Notes under the pieces: model-generated | What the model was told of the DNA's origin: nothing | Seen by the model: the letters and a program-made list of their open reading frames with translations, nothing else | Database searches by the model: none | Source of the DNA: an uncultured bacterium | GTDB lineage: Bacteria; Chlamydiota; Chlamydiia; Chlamydiales; SLFE01 | DNA length: 64,000 nucleotides | NCBI GenBank assembly: GCA_964584775.1 | Contig: CAZPBC010000003.1 | Span: forward strand, 14,015 to 78,014 | Reading direction: 5' to 3' | Position numbers and translations under genes: made by a program | Part shown: piece by piece, positions 1 through 17,100 of the stretch | Layout of the letters: every line of letters starts with the position of its first letter | Numbering within the stretch: position 1 is the first letter of the stretch

Positions 1-1
1 C

Positions 2-52
2 TGCGATCTAGGCTCTTTTGCAGAGTATGCAGATGATGAGCTGGAGTCTTAG
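2..52 (+). CDS. 3' end of an ORF cut by the window edge. Its position suggests the antitoxin partner of the following toxin.
   Basis: Frame 2 reads CDLGSFAEYADDELES, then TAG at 50-52, 2 nt before the TTG start of the toxin ORF. The acidic C-terminus and tight spacing are typical of antitoxin-toxin pairs. It is too short to identify. Confidence 0.3.
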   Translation, partial: CDLGSFAEYADDELES

Positions 53-54
53 GA

Positions 55-348: not shown

Positions 349-593
349 GAGCTTATTAAGAGACCCACGGCTGGTTCTCTGCTCTTATCTTCTCTGAGAA
401 AGTCGAAGAGGCAGGCCTTATCCAAGAACCTGAACTCGTCGTTGTCGTCTACCTTCCCTTCGCTGCCTCAATCGCCCGTAAATGGCGCTCTATTCAATCT
501 CATTTAAATTAGAATAAAAAAACTTTCTCTTTTTTTATTGAATAAAGGTATAATAATTTCATTCAATTAAATAACTTTAATGAGGAGTTAAAT

Positions 594-959
594 ATGGATT
601 TTTTTCTTGTGAGCTTTGATAATGGTGTAGCCACGGTAGAGTGTGAGGTCGATAACACTGACCTGGCAAATCAGCTTCCAGATAAAATTTTGGGGATGAT
701 GGATGGCCGGGAGGTGAAAGAAGTTGTCCTCAGAGGTTCTGTTTCAGAAGATGCCATGCCTGTGCTAGCTACTGCAATGAGGGCAAACGATGTGGAGTTA
801 AGCGTAGATGGTCCCTTTGTAGGAGGTTTTAGCTTAACTGAATGTAATCAGGTAACGAGTTTAGATACTTTGACTGTAGGACATCTTGACCTAACTGGAT
901 GTAATCAGATAACGAGTTTGCCAGATACTTGGTCTGTTAATGGCTGGCTGTCGTCATGA
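594..959 (+). CDS. Small protein ending in Cys-containing LRR-like repeats. It may be a fragment of the LRR family seen at 28-32 kb.
   Basis: C-terminus LTECNQVTSLDTLTVGHLDLTGCNQITSLPDTW resembles the C..L.SLP repeats of ORFs 28135-32390. AT-rich upstream region with GAGGAG before the ATG. Confidence 0.45.
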   Translation: MDFFLVSFDNGVATVECEVDNTDLANQLPDKILGMMDGREVKEVVLRGSVSEDAMPVLATAMRANDVELSVDGPFVGGFSLTECNQVTSLDTLTVGHLDLTGCNQITSLPDTWSVNGWLSS

Positions 960-1154
960 TCAACAAAAATGTAAGATTATGTTTAAACTGACTGCCGTAC
1001 CTAGGGATAACTAGCCCGGTCTATCATTTTTCACTCTATTAGGTATCTGAAATGGCACTCAGCTGCCTGTTCAGTGGAAAAGTACGAAGCAGGTTGTTAC
1101 GCTTTAGCTACGGTGTTTTCGAGTAAATGAAATTAGATTGGAAATCGGTTATCC

Positions 1155-2504
1155 ATGATTTCATGCAATATTTTGGCTGAAAGCATAATGAATAGATCGG
1201 ATATTTCTATTGGTGCAAAGCAAGTATTACAAGACCTTGAAGAAAGGGATGAGGAAGCTCTTAGCGCGACTCTATCCACTCTAACGGCTTTAGATTTTAA
1301 TGGAAGGTCTTTAGCAATTCTAAGAGTTGATTTTCGGTTATTCGCTAGAGCTCTTCAGATGAATACGACTTTGGTTGAGCTCAATCTCGCTCGTGCTCAG
1401 ATCGATGAGGAGGCTGTTCCTGCTTTTGCGAAGATGCTTGGTGAAAACCGCACTCTCACAAGAGTCAATCTTTCAGGAAATTATATCGATGATGACGGAG
1501 CGAAAGAGGTAGCTCGAGTGGTGGCGACGCATCCGTCACTGACTGACCTCGATCTTTCCGATAATGGGATTTTTATGAGAGGCGCGCAAGCTCTTGAGGC
1601 GGCTCTTCGACGAAACACGGTCCTTGAATCACTCAATTTCAGCGAAAATGGAATTTATGATGAATATGATAATGGTGAAGACTGTGCTGTGTTCGTTGTG
1701 AGAGCTTTAAAAAGTAATCGAACGCTAAAATGGTTAGATTTAAGCAAAACTGGTGGATTTGATCAGCAGAATAAGGCTGTCGGGTTAGCACTGCAGGTGA
1801 ACCAAGCACTTGAGACGCTTATTTTTAGAAACAATGTTTTGTGGGAGAAATCGCTAACGGCATTAGGTCAAGCACTCCGAGTCAATGCAGTACTGCGTTG
1901 TCTAGATTTATCCGGATCACTCCGTTCAGGCTCTATCGAGCCTTTTATCAGTGGACTCAGTGAGAATACGGCTCTTGAAGAGCTCAGACTTGCAGAGTGT
2001 CGTCTAAATAGGCGGGAATTAGACGAGTTAATGGAAGCAGTTGCACACCATCCTCGATTGAGGACACTTGACCTATCGAAAAATGGACTTTGCACCTCCC
2101 AAGCTGGCGTCGTTATCGCAGCACTCAATAAAAACCCTCGAATTCAGGAGATCGATCTGAGACATAATGCGATTGAAGCTCTGCCGGGATGGGAAGAGCT
2201 GCATGAACTCCAAGTGGTGAAATTGGGACACAACCCCCTTGGTCCGGACATAGGGCCGTTCATTGCCGAATGGATAACTCAAGCCTCTGCTCTTCGAGAG
2301 CTATACCTCGACTACACAGGCCTTGCGACAGCGGACCAGCCAGAAATCGTAGCGGCCGTGGAAATCCACCCCTCTCTCCAGCACCTCGATCTCAGTGATC
2401 GATCGATTACTCCTGCCTTAAAAGACTCCCTCTCAGCCGCGATGAGAATGAGTACTTCTCTACACACTCTTGTTTTAGAAGAGCCTGAAATTTTAGTGTT
2501 TTAA
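1155..2504 (+). CDS. Ribonuclease-inhibitor (RNI/NLR)-type leucine-rich repeat protein, eukaryote-like
   Basis: About 12 repeats of 28-29 aa, for example NRTLTRVNLSGNYIDDDGAKEVARVVATHPSLTDLDLSDNGIFMRGAQALEAAL. This is the L..L.L..N.I...GA..LA.AL signature of RI-type LRRs. The true start may be the internal Met at 1188. Confidence 0.75.
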   Translation: MISCNILAESIMNRSDISIGAKQVLQDLEERDEEALSATLSTLTALDFNGRSLAILRVDFRLFARALQMNTTLVELNLARAQIDEEAVPAFAKMLGENRTLTRVNLSGNYIDDDGAKEVARVVATHPSLTDLDLSDNGIFMRGAQALEAALRRNTVLESLNFSENGIYDEYDNGEDCAVFVVRALKSNRTLKWLDLSKTGGFDQQNKAVGLALQVNQALETLIFRNNVLWEKSLTALGQALRVNAVLRCLDLSGSLRSGSIEPFISGLSENTALEELRLAECRLNRRELDELMEAVAHHPRLRTLDLSKNGLCTSQAGVVIAALNKNPRIQEIDLRHNAIEALPGWEELHELQVVKLGHNPLGPDIGPFIAEWITQASALRELYLDYTGLATADQPEIVAAVEIHPSLQHLDLSDRSITPALKDSLSAAMRMSTSLHTLVLEEPEILVF

Positions 2505-2738
2505 GGTTAGGTTCTAAAACCCCTCTAATTTTGATCTAAGTTACTTGTGTTTAGATTTTTATAACAAAATGTAAACAAAAAATATGCCCTATGATTTATA
2601 ATAGGGATAGAGAGTTACTTGGGGGGAAAGCCCCTGTTCTTGGCACCCTTAGCCTCGATATCTTATGAAGTATCCAGGTTAGCCTATTTTCCTTAGCACT
2701 CCAGAATTGGCAATACCCAGACCTTTTGGAGGTGTAAT

Positions 2739-4187
2739 ATGGCCTATCCATTGAATCAGAAGCTGAACCAGAAAGGCGTTCAGAACCAGAAGCAGCAGCA
2801 GCTCATCATGCTTTTGCCAGAGATGCAGCGTGCGATGGATCTGCTGCAGGCGCCTGTCATGGAGCTGGGTGAGCAGATCGAACTGGAGCTCGAGCAAAAC
2901 CCTGTTTTGGAGTACTTCGAAGAGGTCGCCGGGGAGATGGGAGTCAAGAAAGATGAGGGAGTCAAAGAGCTAGATCTTTCCGATCAGGATTATTCTGTCT
3001 TGAAAGATTTGGATGAGTCTTTTGAAGATTTCTTTAGCCAAGATCAAATCACTGAAAAAATCACGGAAGAAGACAAAAAGAAACGCTCTTTCAAAGAATC
3101 TTTGATCGTAGAGGAACGGACGCTCTACCAACATCTGATGGAGCAGGCGCAGGAAACCTTCGAGACAGAAAAAGAGAGACGAGTTGCGAGCCATCTAATA
3201 GGCAGCTTGGACTTGAGTGGGTTTTTCAAAGGAGATTTCAAAGAGGCGGCACTCCTGACAGATTCGACCCCTGATTTTGTTGAAAGAGTTTTAAAAGAAG
3301 TTCAAAAATTTGATCCTCCAGGAATTGCCGCAAGATCGCTCCAAGAGTCCCTGCTCACTCAACTGCGTTACCAGGATAAAGAAAACACCATCGGATACCG
3401 ACTGATTCGCGATTACTTTGACGACTTTATCCACCACCGCCTTCCCCTGATCCAAAAAAAATCGAGGCTTTCTCACAAACAGATCCAAAAAGCGATCGAT
3501 CAGGATATCACTCATCTGGATCTACATCCAGGAACCCTCTTCAATACAGAAGATGTAGGGCCTATGGTTCCTGATGCGAGCTTACTTGAAGAGGATGGGG
3601 TTTTAACCGTCACGATCAACGACGATTCCGTTCCTCCTTTACGGTTTAACCGCACTTACTTACAGCTTCTCCGTCAAGAGAGCTCGAGTGAGGAGACAAA
3701 GGAGTACATCACAAAGAAGTTGAACTCAGCCAAGCTGTTGATCAAAAACATCGAGCAGCGCCATCAGACGCTGACTCGTATCTTAGAAGCGATTGCAAAA
3801 CATCAGCGTGCGTTCCTTGTCCGTCCTGAAGGGCAACTGAAGCCCATGACCATGACGGCATTAGCTGAAGAGCTCGGTCTTCATGAGTCAACGGTCGCCC
3901 GTGCAGTGAGTCGTAAAGTGGTCCACACGCCTCGTGGACTTCTCATGCTTCGCAGCTTCTTCACCACAGCCCTTACCACCCAAGATGGGGGAGAAGTTTC
4001 GAACGCGACGATTAAGGAAGAGATCCTCAAGATCATTGACAAAGAGGATAAGAAAAAACCCTTCAGTGATGTTCAGCTTGCTGAAATCCTCAAAAAAGAG
4101 GGGTATATTGTTGCACGTCGTACCGTTGCGAAGTACCGAGCCCTCCTTTCCATCGGATCTTCCACCCAACGACGAAAGTACAGTTAA
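2739..4187 (+). CDS. rpoN: RNA polymerase sigma-54 factor
   Basis: Gln/Leu-rich region I (QKQQQLIMLLPEMQRAMDLLQ), core-binding region, HTH, and RpoN box ARAVSRKVVHTPRGLLMLRSFF. Confidence 0.95.
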   Translation: MAYPLNQKLNQKGVQNQKQQQLIMLLPEMQRAMDLLQAPVMELGEQIELELEQNPVLEYFEEVAGEMGVKKDEGVKELDLSDQDYSVLKDLDESFEDFFSQDQITEKITEEDKKKRSFKESLIVEERTLYQHLMEQAQETFETEKERRVASHLIGSLDLSGFFKGDFKEAALLTDSTPDFVERVLKEVQKFDPPGIAARSLQESLLTQLRYQDKENTIGYRLIRDYFDDFIHHRLPLIQKKSRLSHKQIQKAIDQDITHLDLHPGTLFNTEDVGPMVPDASLLEEDGVLTVTINDDSVPPLRFNRTYLQLLRQESSSEETKEYITKKLNSAKLLIKNIEQRHQTLTRILEAIAKHQRAFLVRPEGQLKPMTMTALAEELGLHESTVARAVSRKVVHTPRGLLMLRSFFTTALTTQDGGEVSNATIKEEILKIIDKEDKKKPFSDVQLAEILKKEGYIVARRTVAKYRALLSIGSSTQRRKYS

Positions 4188-4216
4188 CCCTCTCCACTTC
4201 TCAGTTGTTTAGGAAG

Positions 4217-4681
4217 TCACTCGTCGACTTGCTCAATCTCCATCTCTGGGTTGGTAGCCCATCTCTTCACGACGTCTACGAGAGGGTGTGGAATACCGCT
4301 TGGTGAGAGAAAGGTGACTCTGTTACATGAGAGCGTTACACTTGGGGGTGCGCGATGGAGCAACACCTTTCCTATGTAGACTTCGTCGGCTCCAATGGAC
4401 AGCTGGCTTGAGGCAAAGAATTGAAAGGGATCTGATCCGTCGCCAACACCCAGTTTTAAAGTTTCAACTGCAAGTAGATTAACGGTCGGTGCAGCCACAC
4501 AGACTCCACCTCTGAGATCAATGGTTCTTCCGGTGATCCAAGTGATCTCTCTGGCCCCGAGAAAGACGCCCGATTTAGCGGTATACTCTTCTAAAGCATG
4601 TCGGATATTTCGTGCAGGGAGGCTTGTAGCAGAGTAACTCTCCTGGAGGACTCGAATTTGATCTAGGGGACTAGGGAGCAT
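4217..4681 (-). CDS. Hypothetical protein, last gene of the NRPS-like operon
   Basis: 154 aa. AAGGAG Shine-Dalgarno about 5 nt upstream of the ATG. Beta-strand-rich composition with no motif I recognise. Confidence 0.5.
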   Translation of the reverse strand: MLPSPLDQIRVLQESYSATSLPARNIRHALEEYTAKSGVFLGAREITWITGRTIDLRGGVCVAAPTVNLLAVETLKLGVGDGSDPFQFFASSQLSIGADEVYIGKVLLHRAPPSVTLSCNRVTFLSPSGIPHPLVDVVKRWATNPEMEIEQVDE

Positions 4682-4712
4682 GATTCTCCTTTGGCAAAGT
4701 TTTAAGAAGTGT

Positions 4713-5603
4713 CTAGCTCTGTCTAATGTAAGCGTAGAGCTGTCTCCAACGGGGGGATGTCTCTTTTTGTTTTTCTGCGAAGTGTAGGATGTCTTCTGGT
4801 GTTTGCTTGGAGAGATGGATGATCTCGTTGTCGGTAAGTCGGAAGAGGATCGCCTGAGCTATTTGGGAGTTAAAGAGCTGGGTGAGTTTTTCTTTGAGAG
4901 AGTGGAAGAGGCGCCGTTTATTGTAGAGGCGGAAGAGAGCGTAGGTGAGGAGGAGGGCGGGAAAGATTTTTAGCCATTGGAAGGACTGGAAGATTTCCAG
5001 CTGTCCTGAGGCGAGGAGAGCGAAGTCAATGAAGAAGAGAGTGAGCAAAAGGAGGACAAACAGCACTGCTTCGATCCGTTTTTGGATCAGGGGTCCGAGC
5101 CATCGTTGCCAAGAGCGTCCTTGACACTGATAAGCGATGATTTCCTCGAAGAGGGGTTCGTTAAAGGTCATCCGGCAGGTATGGGCGAGCTCATGGGCGA
5201 TCAACTCTTCGCGTTTGTAGAGTCCGAGGAGGCTTTTTTTCTTTCGAAATTCTTTGCGTAGCTGAAGGAGGGAGGCCCATGGAGTTGTCTCCTCTTTTTG
5301 AAAGATCCACGCGCATCCACCGTGCCAGGGGAGGAGCTTGTAGTTGCTGAAGAAGAGGGGGACCCAGTCAGGTTTGACGTCGAAGAGCGGTTCTGTGAGA
5401 GAGAAGGACTCTTCTAAGAAGGCTTCTTGATCCTCTTCTTCAGAGCGTAGGGGGGCGAGTTCGTTGCCGAACTCGTCAAAGAGGTGGTTTTTTAGGTTTT
5501 TGCAATAGTCGACACGCTTTAGAAAGCTCTCTTCGTCCTCATCAGGACCTGCGATAAAACCCTCTTTACTCAGTTGGATCAGCTGTGTGTCGTCGAGCGT
5601 CAT
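4713..5603 (-). CDS. Membrane protein with an HExxH metallopeptidase-like motif
   Basis: IAHELAHTC (HExxH) sits in the soluble N-terminal half. Two hydrophobic helices lie in the C-terminal half (AVLFVLLLLTLFFIDFALLA and IFPALLLTYALFRLY). The start overlaps the upstream gene by 38 nt. Confidence 0.55.
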   Translation of the reverse strand: MTLDDTQLIQLSKEGFIAGPDEDEESFLKRVDYCKNLKNHLFDEFGNELAPLRSEEEDQEAFLEESFSLTEPLFDVKPDWVPLFFSNYKLLPWHGGCAWIFQKEETTPWASLLQLRKEFRKKKSLLGLYKREELIAHELAHTCRMTFNEPLFEEIIAYQCQGRSWQRWLGPLIQKRIEAVLFVLLLLTLFFIDFALLASGQLEIFQSFQWLKIFPALLLTYALFRLYNKRRLFHSLKEKLTQLFNSQIAQAILFRLTDNEIIHLSKQTPEDILHFAEKQKETSPRWRQLYAYIRQS

Positions 5604-6387
5604 ACTTGAGAATCATCTGGTCGGGACGGAGTCGTTCTTTCATCGTCCTGAGCCCTTTCAGTCCTAAGTCCTGTTCAATATTGAAGTAAGTAAACTCCCT
5701 TCCTGCATTTTTTGCAAAGGAGTGGTACATCATTGGTGTCATCCCATGAAAATCATGATTCGATTTTTCGACGTGCCCGACGAGGGTGGTGGGGTTCAGC
5801 TTCTCTCCAATTAACATCGCAGCGATCTGATTCTCGACGCGGAGGAGTCCTCCGATGAGGGGGAGGCGTGTGTAGTGTTCAAGTAAAAGGAAGAGAGCCT
5901 CTTTCTCTTCAGGAGTGCGGATGACGAGGGTGTCGATCCAGTCGCGGATTTCTGGGATTTCTTTTTCAGTGATCTCGAAGTAAGCGGGTTGGTAGCGCTG
6001 CTCGCAGCTGCGGATCTGTTGCCTGAGGCGGTGGAAGGGATGCCCATCCAGCTCGACCAACTCTTCCATTTTCAGTAGGTAGTCTGCTTGGTCGCGGTTG
6101 AGCTGAGACTCCCACTTTTGGAGGTCAGCGGAAGCGAGTAGAATCCGTTCTTGTGTCTTGGAGGGGTGAGGAAAACGTTTCTCAGGACCGATCGGTTCAC
6201 CAAAGGGGATCCACTCGTCTTCCTCTTTTTTATAGAAGAAAAGGGTGTCGCGCGCGATCTGAAAGTAGATCTTGCGGCTCTTTGACCAGATGAAAAGGTT
6301 GGTGAAGGTCATCTCTGAGAGCTGAGGAGGGTGTGCTTCAAAGAAGGGCTTCAGTTCCTCTTGGTGTTTAAATGAGAGGGGCGTCAT
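5566..6387 (-). CDS. DUF2156 / LPG_synthase_C-like protein (free-standing homolog of the MprF aminoacyl-phosphatidylglycerol synthase catalytic domain)
   Basis: The N-terminal LSEMTFTNLFIWSKSRKIYF matches the characteristic s.ytF.NlfiW motif of DUF2156 proteins. Its ~270 aa size fits a double GNAT-like fold. The start overlaps the stop of the upstream gene by 4 nt (ATGA). Confidence 0.55.
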   Translation of the reverse strand: MTPLSFKHQEELKPFFEAHPPQLSEMTFTNLFIWSKSRKIYFQIARDTLFFYKKEEDEWIPFGEPIGPEKRFPHPSKTQERILLASADLQKWESQLNRDQADYLLKMEELVELDGHPFHRLRQQIRSCEQRYQPAYFEITEKEIPEIRDWIDTLVIRTPEEKEALFLLLEHYTRLPLIGGLLRVENQIAAMLIGEKLNPTTLVGHVEKSNHDFHGMTPMMYHSFAKNAGREFTYFNIEQDLGLKGLRTMKERLRPDQMILKYDARRHTADPTE

Positions 6388-8924
6388 GAGAGCAGGCGGG
6401 CGATGCTCTGAGCCAGAAAGGTGAGCGAGGAGGACTCAAAGAGTTTTTCATGTCTTGTGGGGAGCAGCTTGATCGAGAGGCGAGGAACAAAGGCCTTCCA
6501 TCCTTCTGCAATCTCTTTTCGTTCGTTCTCGAGCTCTTCCGCTTCAAAGAGGACCACGTCGATATCGAGGGGAGAGGGGTGGTAGCTCTTTTTGGGAGTT
6601 TTCATTTCGCGGGAAAAGCGTTGAGTGACCTTCTCTTGGAGCTTTTCATCAGCAGAGGAGAGGCCGATGGTGCGTAGGAGGCGCTCCTCAAAGCGCTGGT
6701 AGCGCATGAGGAAGGGTTCATCGCTTCTTTTGTAGATCTTTTTGAAGAAGGTTTTCAAACTATAGAAGGGACGGAGAAGGAGGAATGTCTTTTTCGGTGA
6801 TGGAGCGTCGACGAGGGCTAAAGTGCGGATGTGGATGCCCCGTTTTTTGAGGAGGCGCGCCACTTCAAAGGCGAGGATTCCCCCAAAGCCATAGCCGAGG
6901 AGGGCGACCTCTTCAGTGCGGAGGGTTCTTGAAAGTTCTTTGTCGACCTCTTCAGCACGTTTTATCACGTCAGGATGGCGCTCGATCGTTTCCATTTTCA
7001 CACCGTATAGAGCGTGCTTATCACTAAAGTGTTTGCCGAGCTCAAAGAAGGGGTAGAGCTCGCCGTCGATCCCGCCGAAGCAGATGAGCGGCATGCCGTC
7101 GCCGCCTTCACGGATGTCTGCAAGAAGGCTTTCATCTTGCGGCTCTTTGAGGTATTCAGCGAGTTCAGCGACGGTGGGGTGTTCATAAAGGGTGGTGATG
7201 TTGATCTTCCGGTGGAGTCTTTTATCGATGCCACTGACAATCTTAGCGAGGCTGACAACACTGTAGGGGAACTCAAAGAGGTTCTTCTTTGTGCTGATGG
7301 GGTAGATGCCGAGATGTTCTTGGCAGATGAGGGTGAGCTCTCTTTCGGTCGCGTTTTTAGGAGGGAAGTAGATCTCCTCTTCACACTCTTCCTTAGGTGG
7401 GTTCGGAAGCTGGTCGTAGAGGACCTTCATGTGGTGGTTGAGGGGGAGCTGTGAAAGTTCAATCAGGAAAGAGGGAACGGCGTGTTTGGGTAGATTTGAT
7501 TTGAGGAGTTTGACAAGTGCTTGCTTCGTGACGAGGAGGTCTTTTTTCACGACGTAGTAGGCAGCGAGCATTCCAGGGGAGACTTCCTTCACTGCAGCTT
7601 GCAGGACGCTTGGGTGGTTCACGAGAAGGGTTTCGATCTGATCGAGCTGGAGGCACTCGTCACCGATCGTGACTTGCTTATCTTTACGGCCGATGAATTG
7701 GTATTCACCGTTCTCCAGTTTTTTGACCGTGTCGTCGGTGAGGAAGTAACGCTCGGGGCGCTTCCCGAGCTTCGAGTAGATGATGAAGTTCTTCTTCTTC
7801 TCTTCGTCGGCTCCGAGGTAGCCTTCTGCTAGGGCTGGACTCGAGAGGGCGAGCATCCCCTCTTCTCCCTCTTCCACCTCTTGGAGAGATTCGCTAAGAA
7901 GGAGGACTTTGACAAAAGGAAGAGGTTGTCCGATCGGAGGAGGCACCGAAGAACTCTCTGACACGCGGTGATAGAGCGAGAGGACGCCGTTCTCGGCAGG
8001 GCCGTAGCAGTTCACCACCTCAAAAGGAAGGTCGGCGCGGACCCGTTTTTTGAGCGTTTCTCCTCCGGTGAAGAGGGTGCGTAGCTGACAGGTGCCGAGG
8101 GAGGGATCTTCCCAGTTCTCATCGATCATGAGCTCACAGCTGGAGGTCGGAAGGTGGATCAAGGTGATCTTTTCACTGATGATCCATTTCTTGAGCTCTT
8201 CAGGATTTTGGAGCACTTGACGGGTGGGAATTTTGATCTGCACGCCACTTAAAAGGTAAACAAGGATCTCAGCGATCGACATATCTTGGCTCGGCTTCGA
8301 AGTGATCGCGGCGATATCTTCGCTAGAAAGGTCAAACGTCTCTTTATACCAAGGGATGAGAGCTGAGATCGACTGGTGGGTGAGCTCGACGGCTAACTTT
8401 CCAGAGGAGGTGAAGGTGCAGTAGAGAGGGGTTTTTGGTGAAGGAGGTGTGTGTGTCATCTCTTCAGGGGCGGAGCTGCTGGCAATGATATCGCGGATGG
8501 AGAAGCTCTTCATCTCTTCGTTGAGGATGGAGGGGGCGACACTAGAACTCGTGAGGAGGATTTCTGGAGTCGTGAGCTCCACCATCTCCATCAATTTTGC
8601 CTTGGGTAGAAGCGGGTCAAGGGGGACATAGGTGGCGGAGATCTTAGAGAGAGCAAGGAGGGCGACGACTTGCTCGTACGAACGGTCAGCGAAGAGGGCG
8701 ACACGCGACCCAGCAGCGGCACCTTCTTTGGTTAAAAAGTGGGCGAGGCGGAGTACGTCGGCATGGAGATTCGCAAGGGTGATCGGACCAAGGGGGGTAT
8801 GGATAGCGGGGGCATCTGGATGGACCGCGACGAGCGCTTCGAAGAGCTCATCGATAGTTTGCGGTTTAGTGGAGGGCTTATTAGCCCCTGAGCCGGTCTT
8901 TGTTTCAACGAGGGTTGTCATCAC
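6384..8924 (-). CDS. NRPS-like tridomain protein: AMP-dependent adenylation domain, carrier (T/PCP)-like region, and thioesterase/alpha-beta-hydrolase-like domain
   Basis: A-domain cores: ATYVPLDP (A2), NCYGPAENG (A5), GRKDKQVTIGDECLQLDQIE (A8). Carrier-like segment LFEFPYSVVSLAKIV. TE-like segment PLICFGG...LLGYGFGGILAFEVARLL...LVDAPSP...RHEKLF. Confidence 0.75.
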   Translation of the reverse strand: MMTTLVETKTGSGANKPSTKPQTIDELFEALVAVHPDAPAIHTPLGPITLANLHADVLRLAHFLTKEGAAAGSRVALFADRSYEQVVALLALSKISATYVPLDPLLPKAKLMEMVELTTPEILLTSSSVAPSILNEEMKSFSIRDIIASSSAPEEMTHTPPSPKTPLYCTFTSSGKLAVELTHQSISALIPWYKETFDLSSEDIAAITSKPSQDMSIAEILVYLLSGVQIKIPTRQVLQNPEELKKWIISEKITLIHLPTSSCELMIDENWEDPSLGTCQLRTLFTGGETLKKRVRADLPFEVVNCYGPAENGVLSLYHRVSESSSVPPPIGQPLPFVKVLLLSESLQEVEEGEEGMLALSSPALAEGYLGADEEKKKNFIIYSKLGKRPERYFLTDDTVKKLENGEYQFIGRKDKQVTIGDECLQLDQIETLLVNHPSVLQAAVKEVSPGMLAAYYVVKKDLLVTKQALVKLLKSNLPKHAVPSFLIELSQLPLNHHMKVLYDQLPNPPKEECEEEIYFPPKNATERELTLICQEHLGIYPISTKKNLFEFPYSVVSLAKIVSGIDKRLHRKINITTLYEHPTVAELAEYLKEPQDESLLADIREGGDGMPLICFGGIDGELYPFFELGKHFSDKHALYGVKMETIERHPDVIKRAEEVDKELSRTLRTEEVALLGYGFGGILAFEVARLLKKRGIHIRTLALVDAPSPKKTFLLLRPFYSLKTFFKKIYKRSDEPFLMRYQRFEERLLRTIGLSSADEKLQEKVTQRFSREMKTPKKSYHPSPLDIDVVLFEAEELENERKEIAEGWKAFVPRLSIKLLPTRHEKLFESSSLTFLAQSIARLLS

Positions 8925-8940
8925 AAGCCTCTTTCTTTGT

Positions 8941-9103
8941 CTGGATATTTCATGAATAGTCGCAAAACTGTCACAAAATCCTTTGCGCCACCTTCGACAA
9001 ATTTCCCTTTTGGAAAGGGTGTTAGACCCTTCCCTTCAAGGGTGATTCGTCGAATTTGTCGATCATTTTGTTTCATTTTCACAACTCTTCATGAAACATC
9101 CAG
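8941..9103. repeat. Copy A of a ~165-bp palindromic intergenic repeat (MITE-like)
   Basis: Termini CTGGATATTTCATGAA ... TTCATGAAACATCCAG are inverted repeats (15/16). The arms are imperfectly complementary around a central CCCTTTTGGAAAGGG hairpin. A homologous copy lies at 20957-21120. Confidence 0.75.
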
Positions 9104-9183
9104 GACAGCTATAAAAATTCCAGGAACGTTATTATGTATTAAGCTATAGTCTGATCCATATCATCTCTAGAGTAATATATACA

Positions 9184-10731
9184 ATGAATAGAAACGAAAC
9201 CCTCTTCCGCACCCTCCTAGCTCTCCTCATCCTCAAGTTTCTGATCGTTCTTTTCTTTTTGATTACCAGTGGGATAGGCCTTTCTCCCGACGAAGCACAG
9301 TACTGGGCTTGGAGTCAGGATCTCAGCTTCGGCTACTACAGCAAACCTCCTGGCATCGCCTGGGTGATTGCCTTTTTCACCGCGCTTTTTGGAAACCAGA
9401 TGGTGGCTGTCCGTCTCGGCGCGAGTTTGATTTCCGCACTCCTTGCCTTAGTCACCTACTTTTACAGTAGAAAGCTCTCTCTCTCAGAGGCTTCTGCTTT
9501 TTTTGCAGCGGCCCTGGTTGCCTTTTCTCCTCTCGGTTGGTTGGCTTCAGTCTATATGACCACCGACGGTCCGATGACGCTCTTTTGGAGTGCGGCGACT
9601 TTTTCGCTGCTGGTCTCTCTCCATCGAGAGGAGGAGATCCGCCCCCTTCAGCTCGGGCTCTTTGTGGGGCTCGGTGCTCTATTCAAATGGACCTGCTTCC
9701 TCTTCTGGCCGGTGGCGGGGATTTACCTGCTCCTCCGGCGCAAACTTTCTTGGCTGCCTTTTCTTAAAGCGGGGGGGATCTCTCTCTTCGCTCTCCTTTT
9801 TCCATTGATATGGAATGTAGAGAACGACTTTGTGACATTCCGCCATGTGTTAGGACAGGTTCTCGGCAGCCCGGGTGCGATCCAAGGGGCTCCACGTGCT
9901 CCAGCCAACCCCCTTGACTTTTTTGCTGCGCAGATGGCTCTTGCTTCTCCTTTGATCTTTGTCTTTTTTCTTGCGGGGGTCTGTTGGGGTGCGGTCCGCT
10001 GGCCTAAGCTAGCAGAACGAGAAAAGGGTCTCCTCTTTTTTTCTGGGGGGGTGCTTCTCTTTTACCAAATCTTCAGCTGTTTTCAAAAGATCCAAGGAAA
10101 CTGGGCCGTCTTTGTTTTCCCGACTCTCTTTGTTTTTGTCGCACTCTTCACCTTTGATCTTTTCCACCGCCTCCGTAAGTGGGCGGTCTTTGGACTCTGT
10201 TTAGGTTTGGTAGAAGTCTTTCTGCTCTTTTCGATTCCCTACATCCAATCCAGCGGATGGAAAGAGATCCGCATTCCTTTCCGTTGGAACCGATTCCGCG
10301 AAACGATGGGAGTGGCAGAGCTCGGACCGCTTCTTGAAAAGGCAGGCTTTGATCCAGAAAAACAGTTCCTTCTTTCCGACACCTATCAGATGAGTTCGCT
10401 TCTCAGTTTTTATAATCCCTCTCAAGTGCGCGCCCTATTTATCAACTTGTATGGCCGCCGTCAAAACCAATTCGATTTTTGGCCCGGTCTGAAAGAGGAG
10501 CCAAAAAAAGAGGGACTCTTCCTGACCCTCGAAGAACTCCCTAAAACAGGGAGTCAAATGAAAGCCCTACAAGCAGACCTGACACTCAAACTCTCCCTCT
10601 ATTTCGACGAGGTAGAGTGGGTGGAGCTCGTTCCCTTATACGAAAGTCAAGGGGAGCCTGCCCGCGCCGCCACGCTCTTCAAGGTGAGCGGCTTTAAAGG
10701 AAAACTTCCTGCAACCACGCATCAATACTAA
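9184..10731 (+). CDS. ArnT/PMT-type (GT39/GT83-like) polytopic glycosyltransferase
   Basis: N-terminal motif GLSPDEAQYWAWSQDLSFGYYSKPPGIAW is typical of the dolichyl/undecaprenyl-phosphate-sugar dependent transferase family. There are more than 10 hydrophobic helices and a soluble C-terminal domain. Confidence 0.8.
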   Translation: MNRNETLFRTLLALLILKFLIVLFFLITSGIGLSPDEAQYWAWSQDLSFGYYSKPPGIAWVIAFFTALFGNQMVAVRLGASLISALLALVTYFYSRKLSLSEASAFFAAALVAFSPLGWLASVYMTTDGPMTLFWSAATFSLLVSLHREEEIRPLQLGLFVGLGALFKWTCFLFWPVAGIYLLLRRKLSWLPFLKAGGISLFALLFPLIWNVENDFVTFRHVLGQVLGSPGAIQGAPRAPANPLDFFAAQMALASPLIFVFFLAGVCWGAVRWPKLAEREKGLLFFSGGVLLFYQIFSCFQKIQGNWAVFVFPTLFVFVALFTFDLFHRLRKWAVFGLCLGLVEVFLLFSIPYIQSSGWKEIRIPFRWNRFRETMGVAELGPLLEKAGFDPEKQFLLSDTYQMSSLLSFYNPSQVRALFINLYGRRQNQFDFWPGLKEEPKKEGLFLTLEELPKTGSQMKALQADLTLKLSLYFDEVEWVELVPLYESQGEPARAATLFKVSGFKGKLPATTHQY

Positions 10732-10791
10732 ACATTTTATTCGCACTTTCGATAAGATCAAATCTTTGATACGTAAGAGGAGATCGAAGTT

Positions 10792-13700
10792 ATGGAAAGG
10801 CTATTAGGAGCTTTTGGTTATGCACCTGTTGACCACACTCCACAACCAAAACAGGTCTGGAAGAAAAAACTGGAAGAGATGCTTGGTTCAGAAGTTGCTG
10901 AGAGGTGTGATGAGGCTCTACCTGAACTGAAACACTATTTCACTGATGAGAATTGGCTGGAGTTTCTTCAAGAGCTTGGAATCTATGTGGGTAATGCAAG
11001 GCTGAGGAGAGAAGAGAATTACCAGTTGCTCCAGACAGGGGGTGAGTCGCAGATGGACCGCACGGTCAGGCAAACCTGTGAAACACTGAGAACTGACTTT
11101 CAGATCAAAGTGAGTCAGCTTGCAATCAACGGAGTGTGGCCCGATGAAGCGAGAAGGCTACTTGGAACCATCCTCTGGACGGTAGAGTTTTTAACCAATC
11201 CCTTTGCTCCATCACAGCTTCTATCCGATCTTGTATTCAACATTCTTCCTATTGAGGGGCGAGTCAGTCATTTAGCCGAACGAACAGGTGAGTACCTTGA
11301 GAGTCATGATGTCGAGCAAAACGTTATCTTTGGTTCTGCTCGTTTTCAAAGGTATGGCGAAGTGTACGTTTCTACAGAGTGGGTAAAAATGGGACTTGAT
11401 GAATTGAAAAACCCACAGCCTTTGAATTCGGCCTTGAGGATGACCTTTTACGTTCCTGGTCTTGACTGTCTCACCTTTACCCTTCCCTTTTCCATTCCCG
11501 AGTTGAATGTGCACTGGACGTTCTCTGCTGAGGAGTTTCTTCAGCTGTTTCACTGGTACTTACGTTCTACAGAGGAAGAGCAAGAAAAGTATTTAGAGGA
11601 TCATCGAGGAGAGCTTCGAAAGGTGGTCACAGGACACGCCGATCTCTTAGCGTCGCTCACCAAATTCTACCATGCGTTTGACCAAGTCGTAGGAGAGGAT
11701 TTTCATCGTCAATTGAGAGAGTGTGGGGCTCAGTGGGACCCTGACGGTTGCCAAGAGCTTTCCAGGCAACTGTCAGAGTTTGCGGGAGAGTGGGGTGAAA
11801 AAAGGTTTAACCCAGGACTCGGGATGGGTCTAGCCGTCTACTCAAGTCTTATTCAAGAAGTGGGTGTCGACTCGGACCTAAAGTATGGCGCTGAATCGTG
11901 CCAGGTGAACTTGCGTCAACTTCAGGGTGTTGTTGATCTCTCTTCTGTAAGGGGAAGGGTCGGCTCCTCTGTTGAGCAGGAGGTGAATGATGGTCTCCGC
12001 GCGATGGAAGAGTACGCCAGGAAGGACCTTGCAACGTTGGAGGAATTTGAGGAGCTTCGATTGAAGTTGAAGGGGGTCGAAGCGTTAAAAGGTGAACTGG
12101 AGATCTTGGAAAAGTCGCATGAGTTGAGAAAGGCTCTTTGGGTGCACTATCAAAAGCTCTCACCTGAAGTGAAAGCAGCGCGTGCGGCACTGGAGGCTTT
12201 TTCTCGGAAAGAGCGTGTCGATCGAAGTGATGTACAGGCTTTACGCAAAGCTCTAGAACCGGTGAAAGAGATGGCGGGCTTCCAGGACGTCTACGCTACA
12301 CTGGCTAACTTTGAAGAGGGCTTTGATCGCGAGAAAGAGGCGGTGGCAGAGGGTTTTGGCAAATTCTTGAACCACACGGTTTCGATCTTTGAAGAGGGCA
12401 CGGAGCAGCTCGCAAAACCGAAAGTCGCTGCATTTTTACAGAAAGACAACGTGAATCAAGCCGATGTGCAAGGGGTTTTGGTTTCTCTTGAGCCCTATAA
12501 AGCGCAACCGGGTTTCCAAGAGGTATACGAAGCCCTTGAGGCATTTAAAGCAGCGCGCTTCAAAAGCGGTGTTGATCAAGTAATAAATGATTTTAAAGTC
12601 TTTTTTGAGGGAAGGTTCAATGCTTTGAAAAAAATAGGAGAAGTCGAATTTGAAAACTTCCTTCAAGAATTTTGCGTGGTTCCCTACCGGTATGTTGCAC
12701 CGATGCGTGCTCTCTTGGAACCTCTAGCCGGTTCAGCAGAAGCGGTCGCTGCTTTAGATGCTTACACGGGCAGGTTGAAGCAGAGTGAAGCGCTTGTTAA
12801 GCAAGTGGAAAAAGCGATGGCGGAATTTAAGGAGGAGGTCAAGGTCCGATTCCGCCGTTTTTCTCCTCTTCTCGGTCGGATAGGAGCGACAGAGCGCGAT
12901 ACAATGTTGACGAATTTGGAGCCCTACTTGCCTCTGATCCGACGGATCGGTGCGCTCGGTGAACTTTCTCATCAACTTACCCATGAGGAGTACCACAATT
13001 TGATGGTGGCTCTCGAGAACCCCGACAACGAAAAGTATATAGAGTGGGTTGTGAAAGGGTGTGAAGAGGTGCAAGCGCAACGAGTCGGTGGTGAGACGGC
13101 TTCTTCTGAAGTGTGGCTTCAGCCGCTGCGTACCCTCTTCAGCGCTGCAACGCTGCCTCCTCTAGATATTGTGAAGCATTTTATGGGGATTGCAGATCTC
13201 GATGATTACAACTACGCCATGTTGACCTACCTCTTGCCTCTTCTCTATAAATTAGAGACTTTTGGACTGACAGACCACGATTTTACCCAAAGTGATCCTC
13301 TCTATCGGGGACTGACTGTGGACAGCGATGGGTTCACCGTTCAGTTTAAAAGAGCTCTTGAATGGATCGTGAAAGCGTGCCAGGCCTTGAACACACGCTT
13401 TGATGGAGCGTTCAAGCGAGACTTCGACGAAGTGGTTCGGTTACTCAAACCCGTCGAAACGACAGATGCTGTGTATAAAACGCAAGTATCGAGGAAGGCC
13501 AGAGAGGTCCTTGTTCTTGTTGCGAAGATTGCCGACTTAGGGATGTATGGAACAGAGGATCATGCGAAAATCTTCAGTGGAGTGGTGAGGGATCAAATCC
13601 GCCCAGAGCTTGAAAAAGCGGTGAGAATTTGTGAGTGCTTAAGAGAGCTCCATTTGGATCAAGAAGGACAACCTCATTATCTTCTTAAACCCGATAGAGA

Positions 13701-13944
13701 GGTCTATGAGCCCTGGCAAAAGCCTTTGGTTGACTTGATCCGTCGCGTCAAAGAGCTTGAACACGGTGAACCTTTAGGGAATGTCGTAGAGGCTCCTCCT
13801 GGCGCGTCTGTCCATCTAGAAGATGGCAGGCCGGCGATTCAGATGGGGGATGCCCCTTCCGAAATGGGCAGTGTGGCGGATCCCGATGTGTATGATAATT
13901 CTAACCCTTTTGTGTCTGATCCTGCCGATGACCCAGCTCGGTAA
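10792..13944 (+). CDS. Large orphan protein, paralog 1 of a tandem pair (candidate secreted effector)
   Basis: 1050-aa uninterrupted ORF with GAGGAG about 8 nt upstream of the ATG. It is collinear with the ORF at 14141-17353. Acidic, proline-containing C-terminal tail. No domain recognised. Confidence 0.8.
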   Translation: MERLLGAFGYAPVDHTPQPKQVWKKKLEEMLGSEVAERCDEALPELKHYFTDENWLEFLQELGIYVGNARLRREENYQLLQTGGESQMDRTVRQTCETLRTDFQIKVSQLAINGVWPDEARRLLGTILWTVEFLTNPFAPSQLLSDLVFNILPIEGRVSHLAERTGEYLESHDVEQNVIFGSARFQRYGEVYVSTEWVKMGLDELKNPQPLNSALRMTFYVPGLDCLTFTLPFSIPELNVHWTFSAEEFLQLFHWYLRSTEEEQEKYLEDHRGELRKVVTGHADLLASLTKFYHAFDQVVGEDFHRQLRECGAQWDPDGCQELSRQLSEFAGEWGEKRFNPGLGMGLAVYSSLIQEVGVDSDLKYGAESCQVNLRQLQGVVDLSSVRGRVGSSVEQEVNDGLRAMEEYARKDLATLEEFEELRLKLKGVEALKGELEILEKSHELRKALWVHYQKLSPEVKAARAALEAFSRKERVDRSDVQALRKALEPVKEMAGFQDVYATLANFEEGFDREKEAVAEGFGKFLNHTVSIFEEGTEQLAKPKVAAFLQKDNVNQADVQGVLVSLEPYKAQPGFQEVYEALEAFKAARFKSGVDQVINDFKVFFEGRFNALKKIGEVEFENFLQEFCVVPYRYVAPMRALLEPLAGSAEAVAALDAYTGRLKQSEALVKQVEKAMAEFKEEVKVRFRRFSPLLGRIGATERDTMLTNLEPYLPLIRRIGALGELSHQLTHEEYHNLMVALENPDNEKYIEWVVKGCEEVQAQRVGGETASSEVWLQPLRTLFSAATLPPLDIVKHFMGIADLDDYNYAMLTYLLPLLYKLETFGLTDHDFTQSDPLYRGLTVDSDGFTVQFKRALEWIVKACQALNTRFDGAFKRDFDEVVRLLKPVETTDAVYKTQVSRKAREVLVLVAKIADLGMYGTEDHAKIFSGVVRDQIRPELEKAVRICECLRELHLDQEGQPHYLLKPDREVYEPWQKPLVDLIRRVKELEHGEPLGNVVEAPPGASVHLEDGRPAIQMGDAPSEMGSVADPDVYDNSNPFVSDPADDPAR

Positions 13945-14046
13945 ACGGCGCTTTCATATTCGCGTATTTACCGTACACGAAATCGCAGAGGTTGTGGGAA
14001 AAGTCCTACAATCTCTGGGTTTTTTTCTCGATCGGGTAGTCTGGTG
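13919..14046 (-). pseudogene. Relic of the 3' end of the 2-hydroxyacid-dehydrogenase-like gene, carried along by the tandem duplication
   Basis: The reverse complement reads DYPIEKKTQRL*DFSHNLCDFVYGKYANMKAPFTEL. The intact gene at 17328-17460 reads GYPIEKNHQSFQDFLYNLRQFLHGNYADMKSLFTQL. In-frame TAG at 14006-14008 (minus strand). No upstream remainder of the gene is present. Confidence 0.7.
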
Positions 14047-14080
14047 AAGGAAAACTGCTTGCGACCAGCCATCACTACTA
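14047..14080 (+). pseudogene. Relic of the last ~30 nt plus stop of the glycosyltransferase gene, marking the start of duplication unit 2
   Basis: AAGGAAAACTGCTTGCGACCAGCCATCACTACTAA aligns with AAGGAAAACTTCCTGCAACCACGCATCAATACTAA at 10697-10731. Both are followed by the same ACATTTTATTC...TAAGAT upstream region. Confidence 0.65.
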
Positions 14081-14140
14081 AACATTTTATTCCCACATTC
14101 GCTAAGATGCAACCTTTCAGTTAAAGAGGAGGGTGAAGTT

Positions 14141-17100
14141 ATGTTAAGTGGGGTATTTGGATATCTAGGGTACGAACGTGTTGACAGCACTTTAAAACCA
14201 AAACAAGTTTGGCAACAAACACTGGAAGAGCATCTAGCCGACGAGGTTGCTACCAGGCTTGGTGGTGCTTTACCTGGGCTTAAAGAATATTTTACTGATG
14301 CGAATTGGCCGGAGTTTATTCAGTCTCTTGGAATCTATGTGTCTAATGCAATGATGAGGAGAGAAGAGAACTACCTGCTGCTCCAGACTGGCGGTGAGTC
14401 GCAGATGGGTCGCACGGTTAGGCAGATCTGTGAAAGAGTGAGGTCTGAGTTTCAGTTGAAAGTAAGTCAACTTGCAAAGGATGGAGTGTGGCCCGATGAG
14501 GCGAGCAAGCTACTTGGAACCATCCTGTCGACGGTCGAGTTTTTAACCAATCCCTTTGCTCCAACACAGCTTCTATCCGATCTTGTATTCAACATTCTTC
14601 CGACTAAGGGGCGAGTCAGTCATTTAGCGAAACGAACAGGATCATACTTTCATCCTGAGGATGAAGAGCAACAAGTCATTTTTGGTTCTGCACATTTTCA
14701 ACAGTATGGAGAGGTGTATGTTTCTACTGAGTGGGTAGAAATGGAGATTCTAAAAACGGTTGATCCGCAGCCTTTAGAATCCGCTTTGAGGATGACTTTT
14801 TACCTTCCTGGTGTGGATTGCCTGACTTTTACGCTTTCTTTTTCCCTTCCTGATTTGGATGTACGGAGGGAGGCCTCTTCCAGCAAGTTTCTTAAGCTGT
14901 TTCACTCTTACTTATCTGCTTCGGAAGAGGAGGAAGAAACGTATTTAAAGAAGCACCGTGGAGAGCTTCGAAAGGTAGTCAGAGGACACGCTGATCTGAT
15001 AGAGGCGTTGACCAAATTTTACCATCCGCTTGAAATTATGATAGGGGGAGATTTTCGCCGTCAGATGGCGAAATGCGATGCTCAGTGGGATCCTTACGAC
15101 TGGAAAGAATTAAAGGATCTGCTGTTATTGTTTGGCAGGGAGTGGGGCCAAAAAAGGTTTAATATGGAATTGGGACTGAGTCTAGAAGTCTACTCAGAAT
15201 TTTTTCGACTAGAAGCTCTCCACCCTGAAGAAGCAGTAGGCGCTGAACCGGAAGTGAAGTATGATCCTAAAGCGTGCCTGCTGTTCTTGCATCGTCTTCA
15301 GAATGTTGTGGATCTCTCTTCTGTAAGGAAAAGAGAAGAGGAGAGGGTTGTCGACTCCTCTATTTCAGAGGAGGTGACTCAAGGTCTCCTTGCGATTGAA
15401 GAGTATGCAGGAAAGGAGCTCGCGACCTTGGAGGAATTTGAGGAGCTTCGATCTCAATTGGCGGAGGTCGAAGAGTTACAAGATGAACTGGAGATCTTGG
15501 ATAAGTCGCATGAGTTGAGAAAGGCACTGTGGAAACACTATCAAAAACTCTCAAATGAAGTGAAGGTTGCAAGTGCGGCGTTGCAGGCCTTTTCTCGGAA
15601 AGAGACGATCTACCGATTGGATATCAAATCCTTTCGAGAGGCTCTAGAGCCGGTGAAACAAATGGTGGGCTTCGATGAAGTCTACGCAACACTTGCCACC
15701 CTTGAAGAAGGCTTTGCCGAAGAAGAGGCCGTAGAAGAGGGCTGTGCCGACGAAGAGGCGGTGGCAAAGGCTTTAAGCAAATTCTTGAGCCACCCCTTTG
15801 AAGAGGGCTCGGAGCAGCTTGCAAAGCCGCAAGTTGACGAATTTTTAAAGAAGGAAAATGTGAATCAAGCGGATGTGCAATGCGTTTTGGACGCTCTTGA
15901 GCCCTATAAAGAGAAAGCGGAATTTAAAGAGGTGCACAGAGCCCTCAAGGCTTTTCATGCAGAGCGTTTCACGGAAGGAGTAGAATTCGTAGAAAATGAC
16001 TTTAAGGCATTTTTTAAGGAACAATATGGTGATGTGGAAAAAATAGGAGGGGTAGCAGTTGAGAACTTCCTTGAAGAGTTTTGCATCGACTCATACCAGT
16101 ATCTTGCATCGATGCGTGCTCTCTTGGAACCTCTAACTGGCTCCGAAGAGGCAGTGGCTGCTTTAGACGCTTTCTCGGAGCGGTTGAGGCAAGGGGAAGC
16201 CCCTGTTGAGCGTGTCGAGGCAGCGATGGTCGCTTTTAAGAAAGAAGCGGTGGTCCGTTATTGCCGTTTTTCTCCTCTTCTCGGTCGGATAGGAGCTACG
16301 GAGCGCGATACGATGTTGACGAATTTGCATCCCTATCTACCTCTGATCCGACGTATTGGTGCGCTCGGTCAGCTTTCTCATGAGGAGTACCACAATTTGA
16401 TGGTCGCTCTGGAGAACCCCGACAACGGAAAGTATATCGAGTGGCTTGTGAAAGGGTGTGAAGAGGTGCAAGCGCAAAGAGTGGGTGGTGAAATGGCTTC
16501 CCCTGAAGTGTGGCTTCAGCCACTGCGTACGTTCTTCAGCTCTGCAACGCTGCCTGCACTTGATATTGTGAAGCGTTTTATGGAGATTAAAGATCTCGAT
16601 GAACACAACTACGCCATGTTGACCTACCTCTTGCCTCTTTTTTATAAACTAGAGACTTTTGGACTGACAGACTACACCCTTACTGACGAGGATCCTCTCT
16701 ATCGGGGACTGACTGGGGCCTTCACCGTTCAGTTTAAAAAAGCACTTGAATGGATCGTGAAAGCGTGTCAGGCCTTGAACAGGCGCGTTGCTGGAGGATT
16801 CAAGCGAGACTTTGACGAGGTGGTCAGGTTACTCACACCCATTCGAGAGACAGATGCTGTGCATGAAACGCAGGTATCGTTCAAAGCCACAAACGTCTTT
16901 ACTCTTGTCGCGAGGATAGCCGACTTAGGGAAGTGTAAAGCAGAGGATCACGCGAAACTCTTCAGCGCAGTTGTCAGGGATAAAATCCGCCCTGAGCTTG
17001 AAAATTTGGTGGACATTTGTGAGGGCTTAAGAAGATTCCATTTCGATCAAAAGGGAAAGCCTGACTATCTCCCTAAACCTGATGGAGAGGAGTATGAACC

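Follow-up and report, generated by a model that had tools for sequence, protein, structure and literature searches.

The stretch analysed here, 64,000 nucleotides (nt) of contig CAZPBC010000003.1 from the uncultured chlamydial assembly GCA_964584775.1 (the window, on which positions are numbered), carries a block of three tightly packed genes. They encode a protein with the adenylation, carrier and thioesterase (A-T-TE) domain order of a nonribosomal peptide synthetase (NRPS), a free-standing DUF2156 protein of tandem GNAT fold, and a membrane protein with an HExxH motif. The gene order recurs in other chlamydiae, the DUF2156 protein keeps every invariant residue of its subfamily, and the A-T-TE protein has lost key residues in all three of its domains. 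We read the block, with a probability of about 40%, as a lineage-restricted module of environmental Chlamydiae in which an intact double-GNAT acyltransferase would use a soluble donor alongside a non-catalytic NRPS-like partner and a membrane zincin, the whole descending from a carrier-dependent system. Each part belongs to a known superfamily; as far as the literature was searched, neither the HExxH family nor the pseudo-NRPS state is described. No paper on the gene combination was found there either, in line with an earlier interpretation of the letters and open reading frames (ORFs), hereafter the sequence-only reading, which had put the system forward as a candidate for an undescribed one; the combination itself is real.

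Gene arrangement and its recurrence

The genes of the locus and its immediate surroundings are the following.

8924 or 8921 to 6384, minus strand: A-T-TE gene, 846 or 845 amino acids (aa), with GTG at 8924 and ATG at 8921
6387 to 5566, minus strand: DUF2156 gene, 273 aa
5603 to 4713, minus strand: HExxH gene, 296 aa
4681 to 4217, minus strand: 154-aa ORF, the 'orphan' of the sequence-only reading
9184 to 10731, plus strand, divergent from the block: PMT_2 glycosyltransferase gene, 515 aa
2739 to 4187, plus strand, convergent with the block: rpoN (sigma-54; TIGR02395, 1.4e-111), the synteny anchor

The A-T-TE stop codon and the DUF2156 start codon share the ATGA at 6384-6387, the DUF2156 and HExxH genes overlap by 38 nt (5566-5603), and a gap of 31 nt (4682-4712) separates the HExxH gene from the 154-aa ORF. 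ORF calls and Pfam agree with the sequence-only reading in coordinates, overlaps, domain architecture and the translational coupling that the two overlaps indicate. The three genes of the block are clearly coding by their codon usage (0.40-0.47 bits/codon, with a third-position GC content, GC3, of 0.61-0.64); the 154-aa ORF scores a weak 0.15 bits/codon with a GC3 of 0.47. Six metagenome contigs match the window at 99.98-100% over 5.1 kb and represent one strain, without a population signal. A horizontal-transfer signal for the block was considered and rejected, its GC and GC3 lying inside the range of the window.

More distant chlamydial loci carry the following arrangements, in gene order.

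L014 (JGI 3300014198): penicillin-binding protein (PBP) gene, rpoN, A-T-TE, DUF2156, HExxH
L015 (metagenome contig): gene ending in a hydrophobic tail, DUF2156, HExxH, with rpoN convergent
L016/L039 (Parachlamydiales metagenome-assembled genome): DUF2156 without either partner
L017 (Chlamydiae bacterium K940_chlam_3): divergent PMT_2 glycosyltransferase, A-T-TE, Sfp-type phosphopantetheinyl transferase (PPTase), DUF2156, HExxH, rpoN, PBP

The order A-T-TE, DUF2156, HExxH is kept in L014 and L017, and the DUF2156-HExxH pair alone in L015. Because the order recurs in the diverged L014 and L017 and partly in L015, the gene arrangement is more than chance. Within the L017 block, the Sfp-type 4'-phosphopantetheinyl transferase gene (4567-5259) lies between the A-T-TE and DUF2156 genes; in L015, the gene before DUF2156 (3-116) ends in a transmembrane-like hydrophobic tail and overlaps the DUF2156 start. 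The rpoN gene adjoins HExxH in L015, L017 and a further locus (L013, below) and lies upstream of the block in L014. The sequence-only reading had expected all four minus-strand genes to be conserved together, which related chlamydial contigs bear out for A-T-TE, DUF2156 and HExxH; the 154-aa ORF has no counterpart in L015 or L017, in which rpoN lies directly next to HExxH.

Beyond these loci, a metagenome scan with the chlamydial A-T-TE alignment returned the K940 contig again and no further lineages. A hidden Markov model search of some 75 non-chlamydial loci with a free-standing DUF2156 gene (Desulfobacterota, Brocadiia and others) found neither an A-T-TE nor an HExxH neighbour; its other matches were two distant AMP-binding genes, 2-5 kb away. 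Outside Chlamydiae, free-standing DUF2156 genes had no recurrent partner at these loci, their neighbours being varied housekeeping genes.

An intact double GNAT beside an eroded NRPS-like protein

The protein encoded at 5566-6387 matches Pfam LPG_synthase_C/DUF2156 (PF09924) over nearly the full model (116.1 bits against a cut-off of 27.5, E 2.1e-33, model positions 7-297 of 298), where the sequence-only reading had placed it, and consists of this single domain, with no fused flippase membrane domain or aminoacyl-tRNA synthetase domain. A word-indexed search for homologues gave three matches, and an exhaustive search was used instead; it returned 3468 related cluster representatives, nearly all of which consist of one domain and measure about 290-300 aa. 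Identity reaches 37-39% in the nearest of these, and the best match among GTDB species representatives was 35% identical. A profile built from the 30 best relatives matches PDB entry 2HQY (Bacteroides BT_3689) at E 5.8e-87 and the synthase domains of MprF/LpiA at E 0.08-0.3; as a single query against the PDB, the window protein matches 2HQY alone, with no MprF at E <= 1. Its AlphaFold 2 model (mean predicted local distance difference test score, pLDDT, 91.5) has a tandem GNAT fold for which Foldseek places 2HQY first (template modelling score, TM, 0.86; E 7.5e-22), ahead of MprF C-domains (TM 0.6-0.68, E about 1e-10) and then Sbb17/Sba18 and FemX. All subfamily-invariant residues are kept: W34, Y103, G115, H205, K208, N236, E238, D240, G242, G245 and P255.

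By sequence profile and predicted fold, the protein belongs to the free-standing BT_3689/2HQY subfamily and is not MprF-like; the catalyst that the sequence-only reading had likened to MprF is far closer to 2HQY on both measures. It shares with BT_3689 and its Helicobacter pylori homologue HPB8_1270 a length of about 273-305 aa, the two-GNAT fold, the invariant residues and the lack of fused membrane or aminoacyl-tRNA synthetase domains. It differs from them in being only about 24% identical to 2HQY. Most members have a Cys-containing insert that is missing from the chlamydial clade, whose GNAT I loop is also shortened; among the clades found, no other has A-T-TE and HExxH neighbours. The 2HQY structure is reported to hold acetyl-CoA in its active site, and deletion of HPB8_1270 lowers the acetylation of four lysines of RNase J (PMC10700544). 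By analogy with these nearest relatives, the donor would be an acyl-CoA.

PF09924 also contains users of aminoacyl-tRNA, namely MprF, ErdS and the free-standing fungal ErgS (PMC7334510, PMC8913301). The window protein might work as they do and move an amino acid from aminoacyl-tRNA to a lipid or sterol-like acceptor, with the HExxH protein as the removing hydrolase, as in the erdS-erdH and mprF-aminoacyl-phosphatidylglycerol hydrolase pairs, and the A-T-TE-like protein as an accessory. We consider this unlikely. The protein does share with the MprF-type aminoacyl-phosphatidylglycerol synthase C-domain, ErdS and ErgS its Pfam family, the double-GNAT fold, with MprF, Sbb17 and FemX as the next-best structural matches, and the C-terminal GLRxxK..P motif common to MprF domains. 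It also keeps, in the model, a positively charged helix between the GNAT halves (residues 116-132, with R120, R122, R126 and R131), an element linked to aminoacyl-tRNA binding in MprF and ErdS (PMC7334510). A free-standing DUF2156 protein can moreover be tRNA-dependent, the dependence of ErgS on Gly-tRNA having been proven (PMC8913301), and neighbouring transferase and hydrolase genes recur in such systems (PMC7334510). Against these stand a sequence and structure far nearer the acetyl-CoA-bearing 2HQY than any tRNA-dependent member, similarity to MprF synthases that is marginal, the absence of a flippase domain or an aminoacyl-tRNA synthetase paralogue nearby, and two features of the HExxH protein treated below, namely its presence in chlamydiae whose corresponding locus has no DUF2156 gene and the predicted cytoplasmic position of its catalytic domain.

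The A-T-TE protein has four Pfam domains in the canonical NRPS order (AMP-binding, 1.6e-46; AMP-binding_C, 8e-8; PP-binding, 3.8e-6; Thioesterase, 1.8e-10). NCBIfam gives generic NRPS/DltA-type similarity alone, far under every cut-off, and the best homologues are 24-28% identical. Motifs were read from an alignment with nine homologues and the two chlamydial orthologues of L014 and L017, and by signature tests, the AMP-binding expression being modelled on PROSITE PS00455. The three regions are as follows.

7431-8840, minus strand: adenylation-like domain; P-loop lost, A10 lysine (K499) and A5/A7 motifs (YGPAE, TDD) kept
7149-7328, minus strand: carrier (T) domain remnant; FEFPYSVVSL against FFDLGGxSL in homologues
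6387-7091, minus strand: thioesterase-like alpha/beta-hydrolase domain; nucleophile Ser replaced by Gly (GYGFGG, G678)

All nine non-chlamydial homologues carry the AMP-binding signature and none of the three chlamydial proteins does. The A3 P-loop (canonical YTSGSTGxPKG) is disrupted differently in each: it reads TFTSSGKLAV in the window (residues 168-177), TSHADPYGRML in L014 and KSGVK-G, with six residues deleted, in L017. At the position of the carrier serine the window has Val555 (PYSV), with a serine at -1 and a one-residue register shift possible; L014 has a proline (TRDP; LTRDPAL); and L017, the sole lineage with an in-cluster PPTase, is also the sole one to keep the serine (GGNSL). 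The thioesterase nucleophile is glycine in all three (GYGFGG in the window, GEGIGG in L014, GQGVGA in L017), and the Asp and His of the triad are retained throughout (VDAP and TRHEK in the window). The A10 lysine is kept in the window and L017; the L014 protein (5576-8014) has glutamine there (ADGQIS), a residue that mimics acetyl-lysine. The specificity code of the window A domain, which the sequence-only reading had proposed to predict, could be read by hand as D-M-A-H-F-G-C-V-L-K and is not conserved among the three lineages, position 235 (canonical D) being D in the window, G in L014 and E in L017. Read in GrsA numbering, the code is not known to match any described one, and no substrate is proposed.

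Judged by these motifs, the window A-T-TE protein cannot adenylate, carry and release a substrate in the textbook manner. The sequence-only reading, which had described it as made for activating an acid and tethering it to a carrier, is not borne out on this point. That reading had drawn an analogy with the Dlt system (DltABCD), which, like AlmEFG, pairs an adenylating enzyme and a carrier with an envelope transferase: here the A domain would activate an acid and load it onto T, and DUF2156 would transfer it to a lipid or glycan. The domain order and the ATGA coupling to DUF2156 are what such a system would require, it is plausible that a GNAT able to bind CoA would take an acyl-pantetheine arm, and in L017 a carrier serine and an in-cluster PPTase stand together. 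There is a parallel, too, in leinamycin-type polyketide synthase (PKS) off-loading modules, of the type ACP-ACP-DUF-SH-TE (ACP, acyl carrier protein), in which a PF09924 domain, flanked by carrier domains and a thioesterase, has been proposed to take the tethered intermediate as its substrate (PMC3870968, PMC7618002). In those modules, however, the DUF domain is fused into the megasynthase and paired with a pyridoxal phosphate-dependent lyase, functional ACPs and a Ser-Asp-His thioesterase, whereas the window DUF2156 is free-standing beside a carrier and a thioesterase without their key residues. For this genome we regard the Dlt-like scheme as highly improbable. The motif losses of the window protein are joined by the lack of an in-cluster PPTase; even L017 lacks the P-loop and the thioesterase serine; the variable position 235 leaves no conserved substrate pocket apparent; and a Pfam/NCBIfam scan of the genes at 1-17353 found no DltB (MBOAT), DltD or AlmG (LpxL-like acyltransferase) domains, so that the window differs from Dlt and AlmEFG in its transferases as well as in the apparent loss of A and T functions.

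Could the A-T-TE gene instead be a relic? On this account it and the short-chain dehydrogenase/reductase (SDR) stub in the 154-aa ORF (4217-4681) would be functionless leftovers of a lost biosynthetic cluster, and DUF2156 and HExxH independent housekeeping genes. Motif erosion that differs by lineage, the PPTase lost in two lineages and the absence of an upstream A-T-TE gene in L015 fit it, as does the distribution of divergence among the three chlamydial proteins, in which the A core is best conserved (29-37% identity) and the T and TE regions least (20-33%). We nevertheless find it quite unlikely. A neutral frame of 2.5 kb would not stay open in three lineages at about 30% identity, many non-catalytic positions are invariant across the three proteins, and the stop/start overlaps are conserved. 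Because the full-length ORFs of about 2.5 kb are intact in three lineages sharing 26-32% identity, and the codon usage of the window gene is strongly coding (0.47 bits/codon), a retained non-canonical function is the better reading than neutral decay. Neither an active NRPS nor a dead gene accounts for the motif pattern as well as a pseudo-enzyme maintained by selection does. Non-adenylating enzymes of the ANL family such as PtmA3 provide a precedent for loss of the adenylation half-reaction.

GNAT enzymes are established regulators of ANL enzymes through the A10 lysine (Acs/Pat, AcsA/AcuA). As with Pat or AcuA and acetyl-CoA synthetase, a GNAT gene here adjoins an ANL-family gene with an A10 lysine, and the DUF2156 protein might acetylate that lysine and control residual activity. 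The lysine retained in the window and L017, the glutamine of L014 and the effect of the H. pylori subfamily homologue on lysine acetylation (PMC10700544) would all suit such a role. We judge it very unlikely all the same, for adenylation already lost would leave little to regulate, Pat and AcuA are GNATs of another family than DUF2156, and the link with HExxH would stay unexplained.

The nearest non-chlamydial A-T-TE proteins (P0004, P0009 and P0011; 25-28% identity) were rejected as orthologues, have no DUF2156 neighbour and served as motif references only. Their genes sit in polysaccharide or glycosyltransferase clusters; the placement of P0009 and P0011 (L009, L010) inside such clusters hints at acylated or aminoacylated glycans there. 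In P0009, P0011 and P0032 the thioesterase nucleophile is Cys, not Ser.

The HExxH protein and the proposed module

The third protein of the block carries the motif HELAH at residues 137-141 (nt 5181-5195) of its 296 aa, in a helix (131-143) that follows a three-stranded sheet. H137, E138, H141, E153 and E154 are invariant in 35 homologues. The AlphaFold 2 model (pLDDT 94, predicted template modelling score 0.90) runs from an N-terminal helical bundle through the sheet and the HELAH helix to a pair of long hydrophobic helices, the predicted membrane hairpin of residues 176-243, and ends at the C-terminus in a helical domain. The protein falls in no Pfam or NCBIfam family, its best Foldseek match in the PDB has an E of 0.58, and a profile search of the PDB gave nothing relevant. 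On motif and model, it is plausibly a membrane-anchored gluzincin-like hydrolase of an unannotated family. Since the protein lacks a signal peptide, a cytoplasmic position is predicted for its catalytic domain; the hairpin topology of the model would place both soluble parts on the cytoplasmic side.

The family is broader than the block. Its 136 homologues at 38-47% identity are all unnamed or assigned to Protochlamydia, Parachlamydia or 'Chlamydiia', and several occur without the A-T-TE/DUF2156 pair. In L011 the gene follows a Peptidase_S11 gene, in L012 it stands by itself, in L013 (Parachlamydia sp. AcF125) it converges with rpoN, and in L111 it precedes the enolase gene. The HExxH-rpoN neighbourhood is the older synteny, with A-T-TE/DUF2156 upstream of HExxH in some lineages only. 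The possible role of hydrolase or editor that the sequence-only reading suggested for the protein sits poorly with a Chlamydiae-wide distribution that includes loci without the pair (L011-L013) and with a catalytic domain predicted to be cytoplasmic. In L011 (6705-8876), the gene of the closest homologue (47%) comes 7 nt after the Peptidase_S11 (D-Ala-D-Ala carboxypeptidase) gene, and the other loci have a large PBP gene near rpoN/HExxH; these neighbours may link the HExxH family to peptidoglycan.

The analysis shows the gene order with its recurrence, the motif losses, the subfamily placement and the folds; from these a candidate mechanism can be assembled for the acyltransferase module that we favour. 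The double-GNAT DUF2156 gene is translationally coupled on both sides, to the NRPS-like A-T-TE gene upstream and to the gene of the HExxH...EE protein downstream. The A-T-TE protein appears to have lost the canonical chemistry of all three domains, and because the window protein cannot adenylate, carry and release a substrate by the textbook route, the GNAT enzyme would most likely depend on a soluble acyl donor, with acetyl- or acyl-CoA favoured by analogy with BT_3689 and HPB8_1270. The group would pass to a protein or envelope-precursor acceptor at the membrane. We infer this donor and acceptor, as we do a physical partnership in which the NRPS-like protein would be kept as a non-catalytic scaffold, substrate binder or target, and the HExxH...EE protein would be anchored in the inner membrane, facing the cytoplasm. 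As to the direction of evolution, the ancestor may have practised carrier-protein-dependent acyl transfer, the acyl-S-pantetheine arm serving the GNAT as a CoA look-alike. The carrier serine and Sfp-type PPTase of K940_chlam_3 suggest descent from such a system; because an intact carrier serine and an in-cluster PPTase occur together in that lineage and singly in none, the window version reads as a later, eroded state. It is enticing to go further and speculate, at odds we hold to be low, that a conserved 'pseudo-NRPS' adaptor presents a substrate to the DUF2156 acyltransferase and membrane zincin, or is itself modified by them, in an unrecognised acylation system whose ancestor used an acyl-S-pantetheinyl CoA mimic.

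Several considerations weigh against the favoured module. The evidence base consists of three or four lineages, all from metagenomes, two of which (L014 and L015) owe their taxon assignment to synteny alone, and the chlamydial clade is known from sequences and predicted models alone. In L015, by its sequence, a membrane protein rather than an A-T-TE protein precedes DUF2156. The adjacency of HExxH may be inherited synteny rather than function, given L011, L012 and L013 without the pair. The degenerate P-loop makes adenylation unlikely, not proven absent. The acetyl-CoA evidence comprises one unpublished structure, as cited by others, and partial genetic effects in H. pylori; and the Arg-rich helix between the GNAT halves, which is not diagnostic, keeps an aminoacyl-tRNA donor possible in the model.

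If the module is functional, it would mean that an NRPS-type protein can be retained for a non-catalytic role, would give the large BT_3689-type DUF2156 family, with its thousands of clusters, its first defined partners, and would provide a testable role for a Chlamydiae-conserved HExxH membrane protein without annotation or structural relative. The case also illustrates that a Pfam 'LPG_synthase_C' match should not be equated with tRNA-dependent lipid aminoacylation, and that NRPS domain calls are not proof of activity unless the core motifs are checked.

Flanking genes and the intergenic palindrome

The 154-aa ORF has no Pfam match. The sequence-only reading had called it an orphan, a description at variance with its first 62 or so residues: residues ~7-62 resemble the extreme C-termini of SDR/FabG-type reductases (18 of 18 PDB matches, best E 0.013), and the SDR hallmark FLxxxExx[YW]ITGxT[IL]x[VL]xGG is visible. 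The ORF lacks the ~190 N-terminal residues of an SDR and continues beyond the SDR-like part with some 90 unrelated residues. It shows no similarity to the L017 PPTase. On its sequence, we take it to be probably the remnant of a gene, or else specific to this lineage, and not a component of the module.

The protein encoded at 9184-10731 is a membrane glycosyltransferase of the GT-C family (PMT_2, 1.4e-21, 77.8 bits against a cut-off of 26.1) and matches the ArnT equivalog weakly (27.7 bits; cut-off 567). An orthologue with 39% identity over its full length occupies the same divergent position in L017; in L014 the gene is not adjacent to the block, so that the association which the sequence-only reading had drawn with this transferase recurs in one of the two lineages. 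Most of the divergent intergenic region is filled by an imperfect palindrome of about 165 nt with nested inverted repeats (8941-9103; RNA minimum free energy -79.3 kcal/mol, z = -9.1). A second copy lies between convergent ORFs at 20961-21098 (86% identical over 95 nt), and the palindrome looks like a repeated element of the miniature inverted-repeat transposable element or repetitive extragenic palindromic (MITE/REP) kind. The same glycosyltransferase/A-T-TE intergenic region of L017 holds an unrelated, almost perfect long palindrome (about 1640-1890), flanked by short repeats of the GACGC[AG]AA type.

Sigma-70-like, sigma-54-like and terminator-like sites are no more frequent than expected by chance, and the 8925-9183 gap contains none. 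PADLOC models of anti-phage defence systems gave zero matches for the five proteins of the locus, and the whole 64-kb window has zero tRNA genes and zero Rfam families at the gathering score. Beyond the glycosyltransferase gene, two adjoining genes (10792-13944 and 14141-17353) encode proteins of about 1050-1070 aa that match no Pfam or NCBIfam family and are present in all related metagenome contigs. On the other side, 1155-2504 encodes a leucine-rich-repeat protein (LRR_6, with a weak XopAC-like match) of low GC3 (0.39); in contig L003 (13884-15233) the same gene is called as two pieces of 328 and 96 aa, a split suggestive of a frameshift or stop at strain level.

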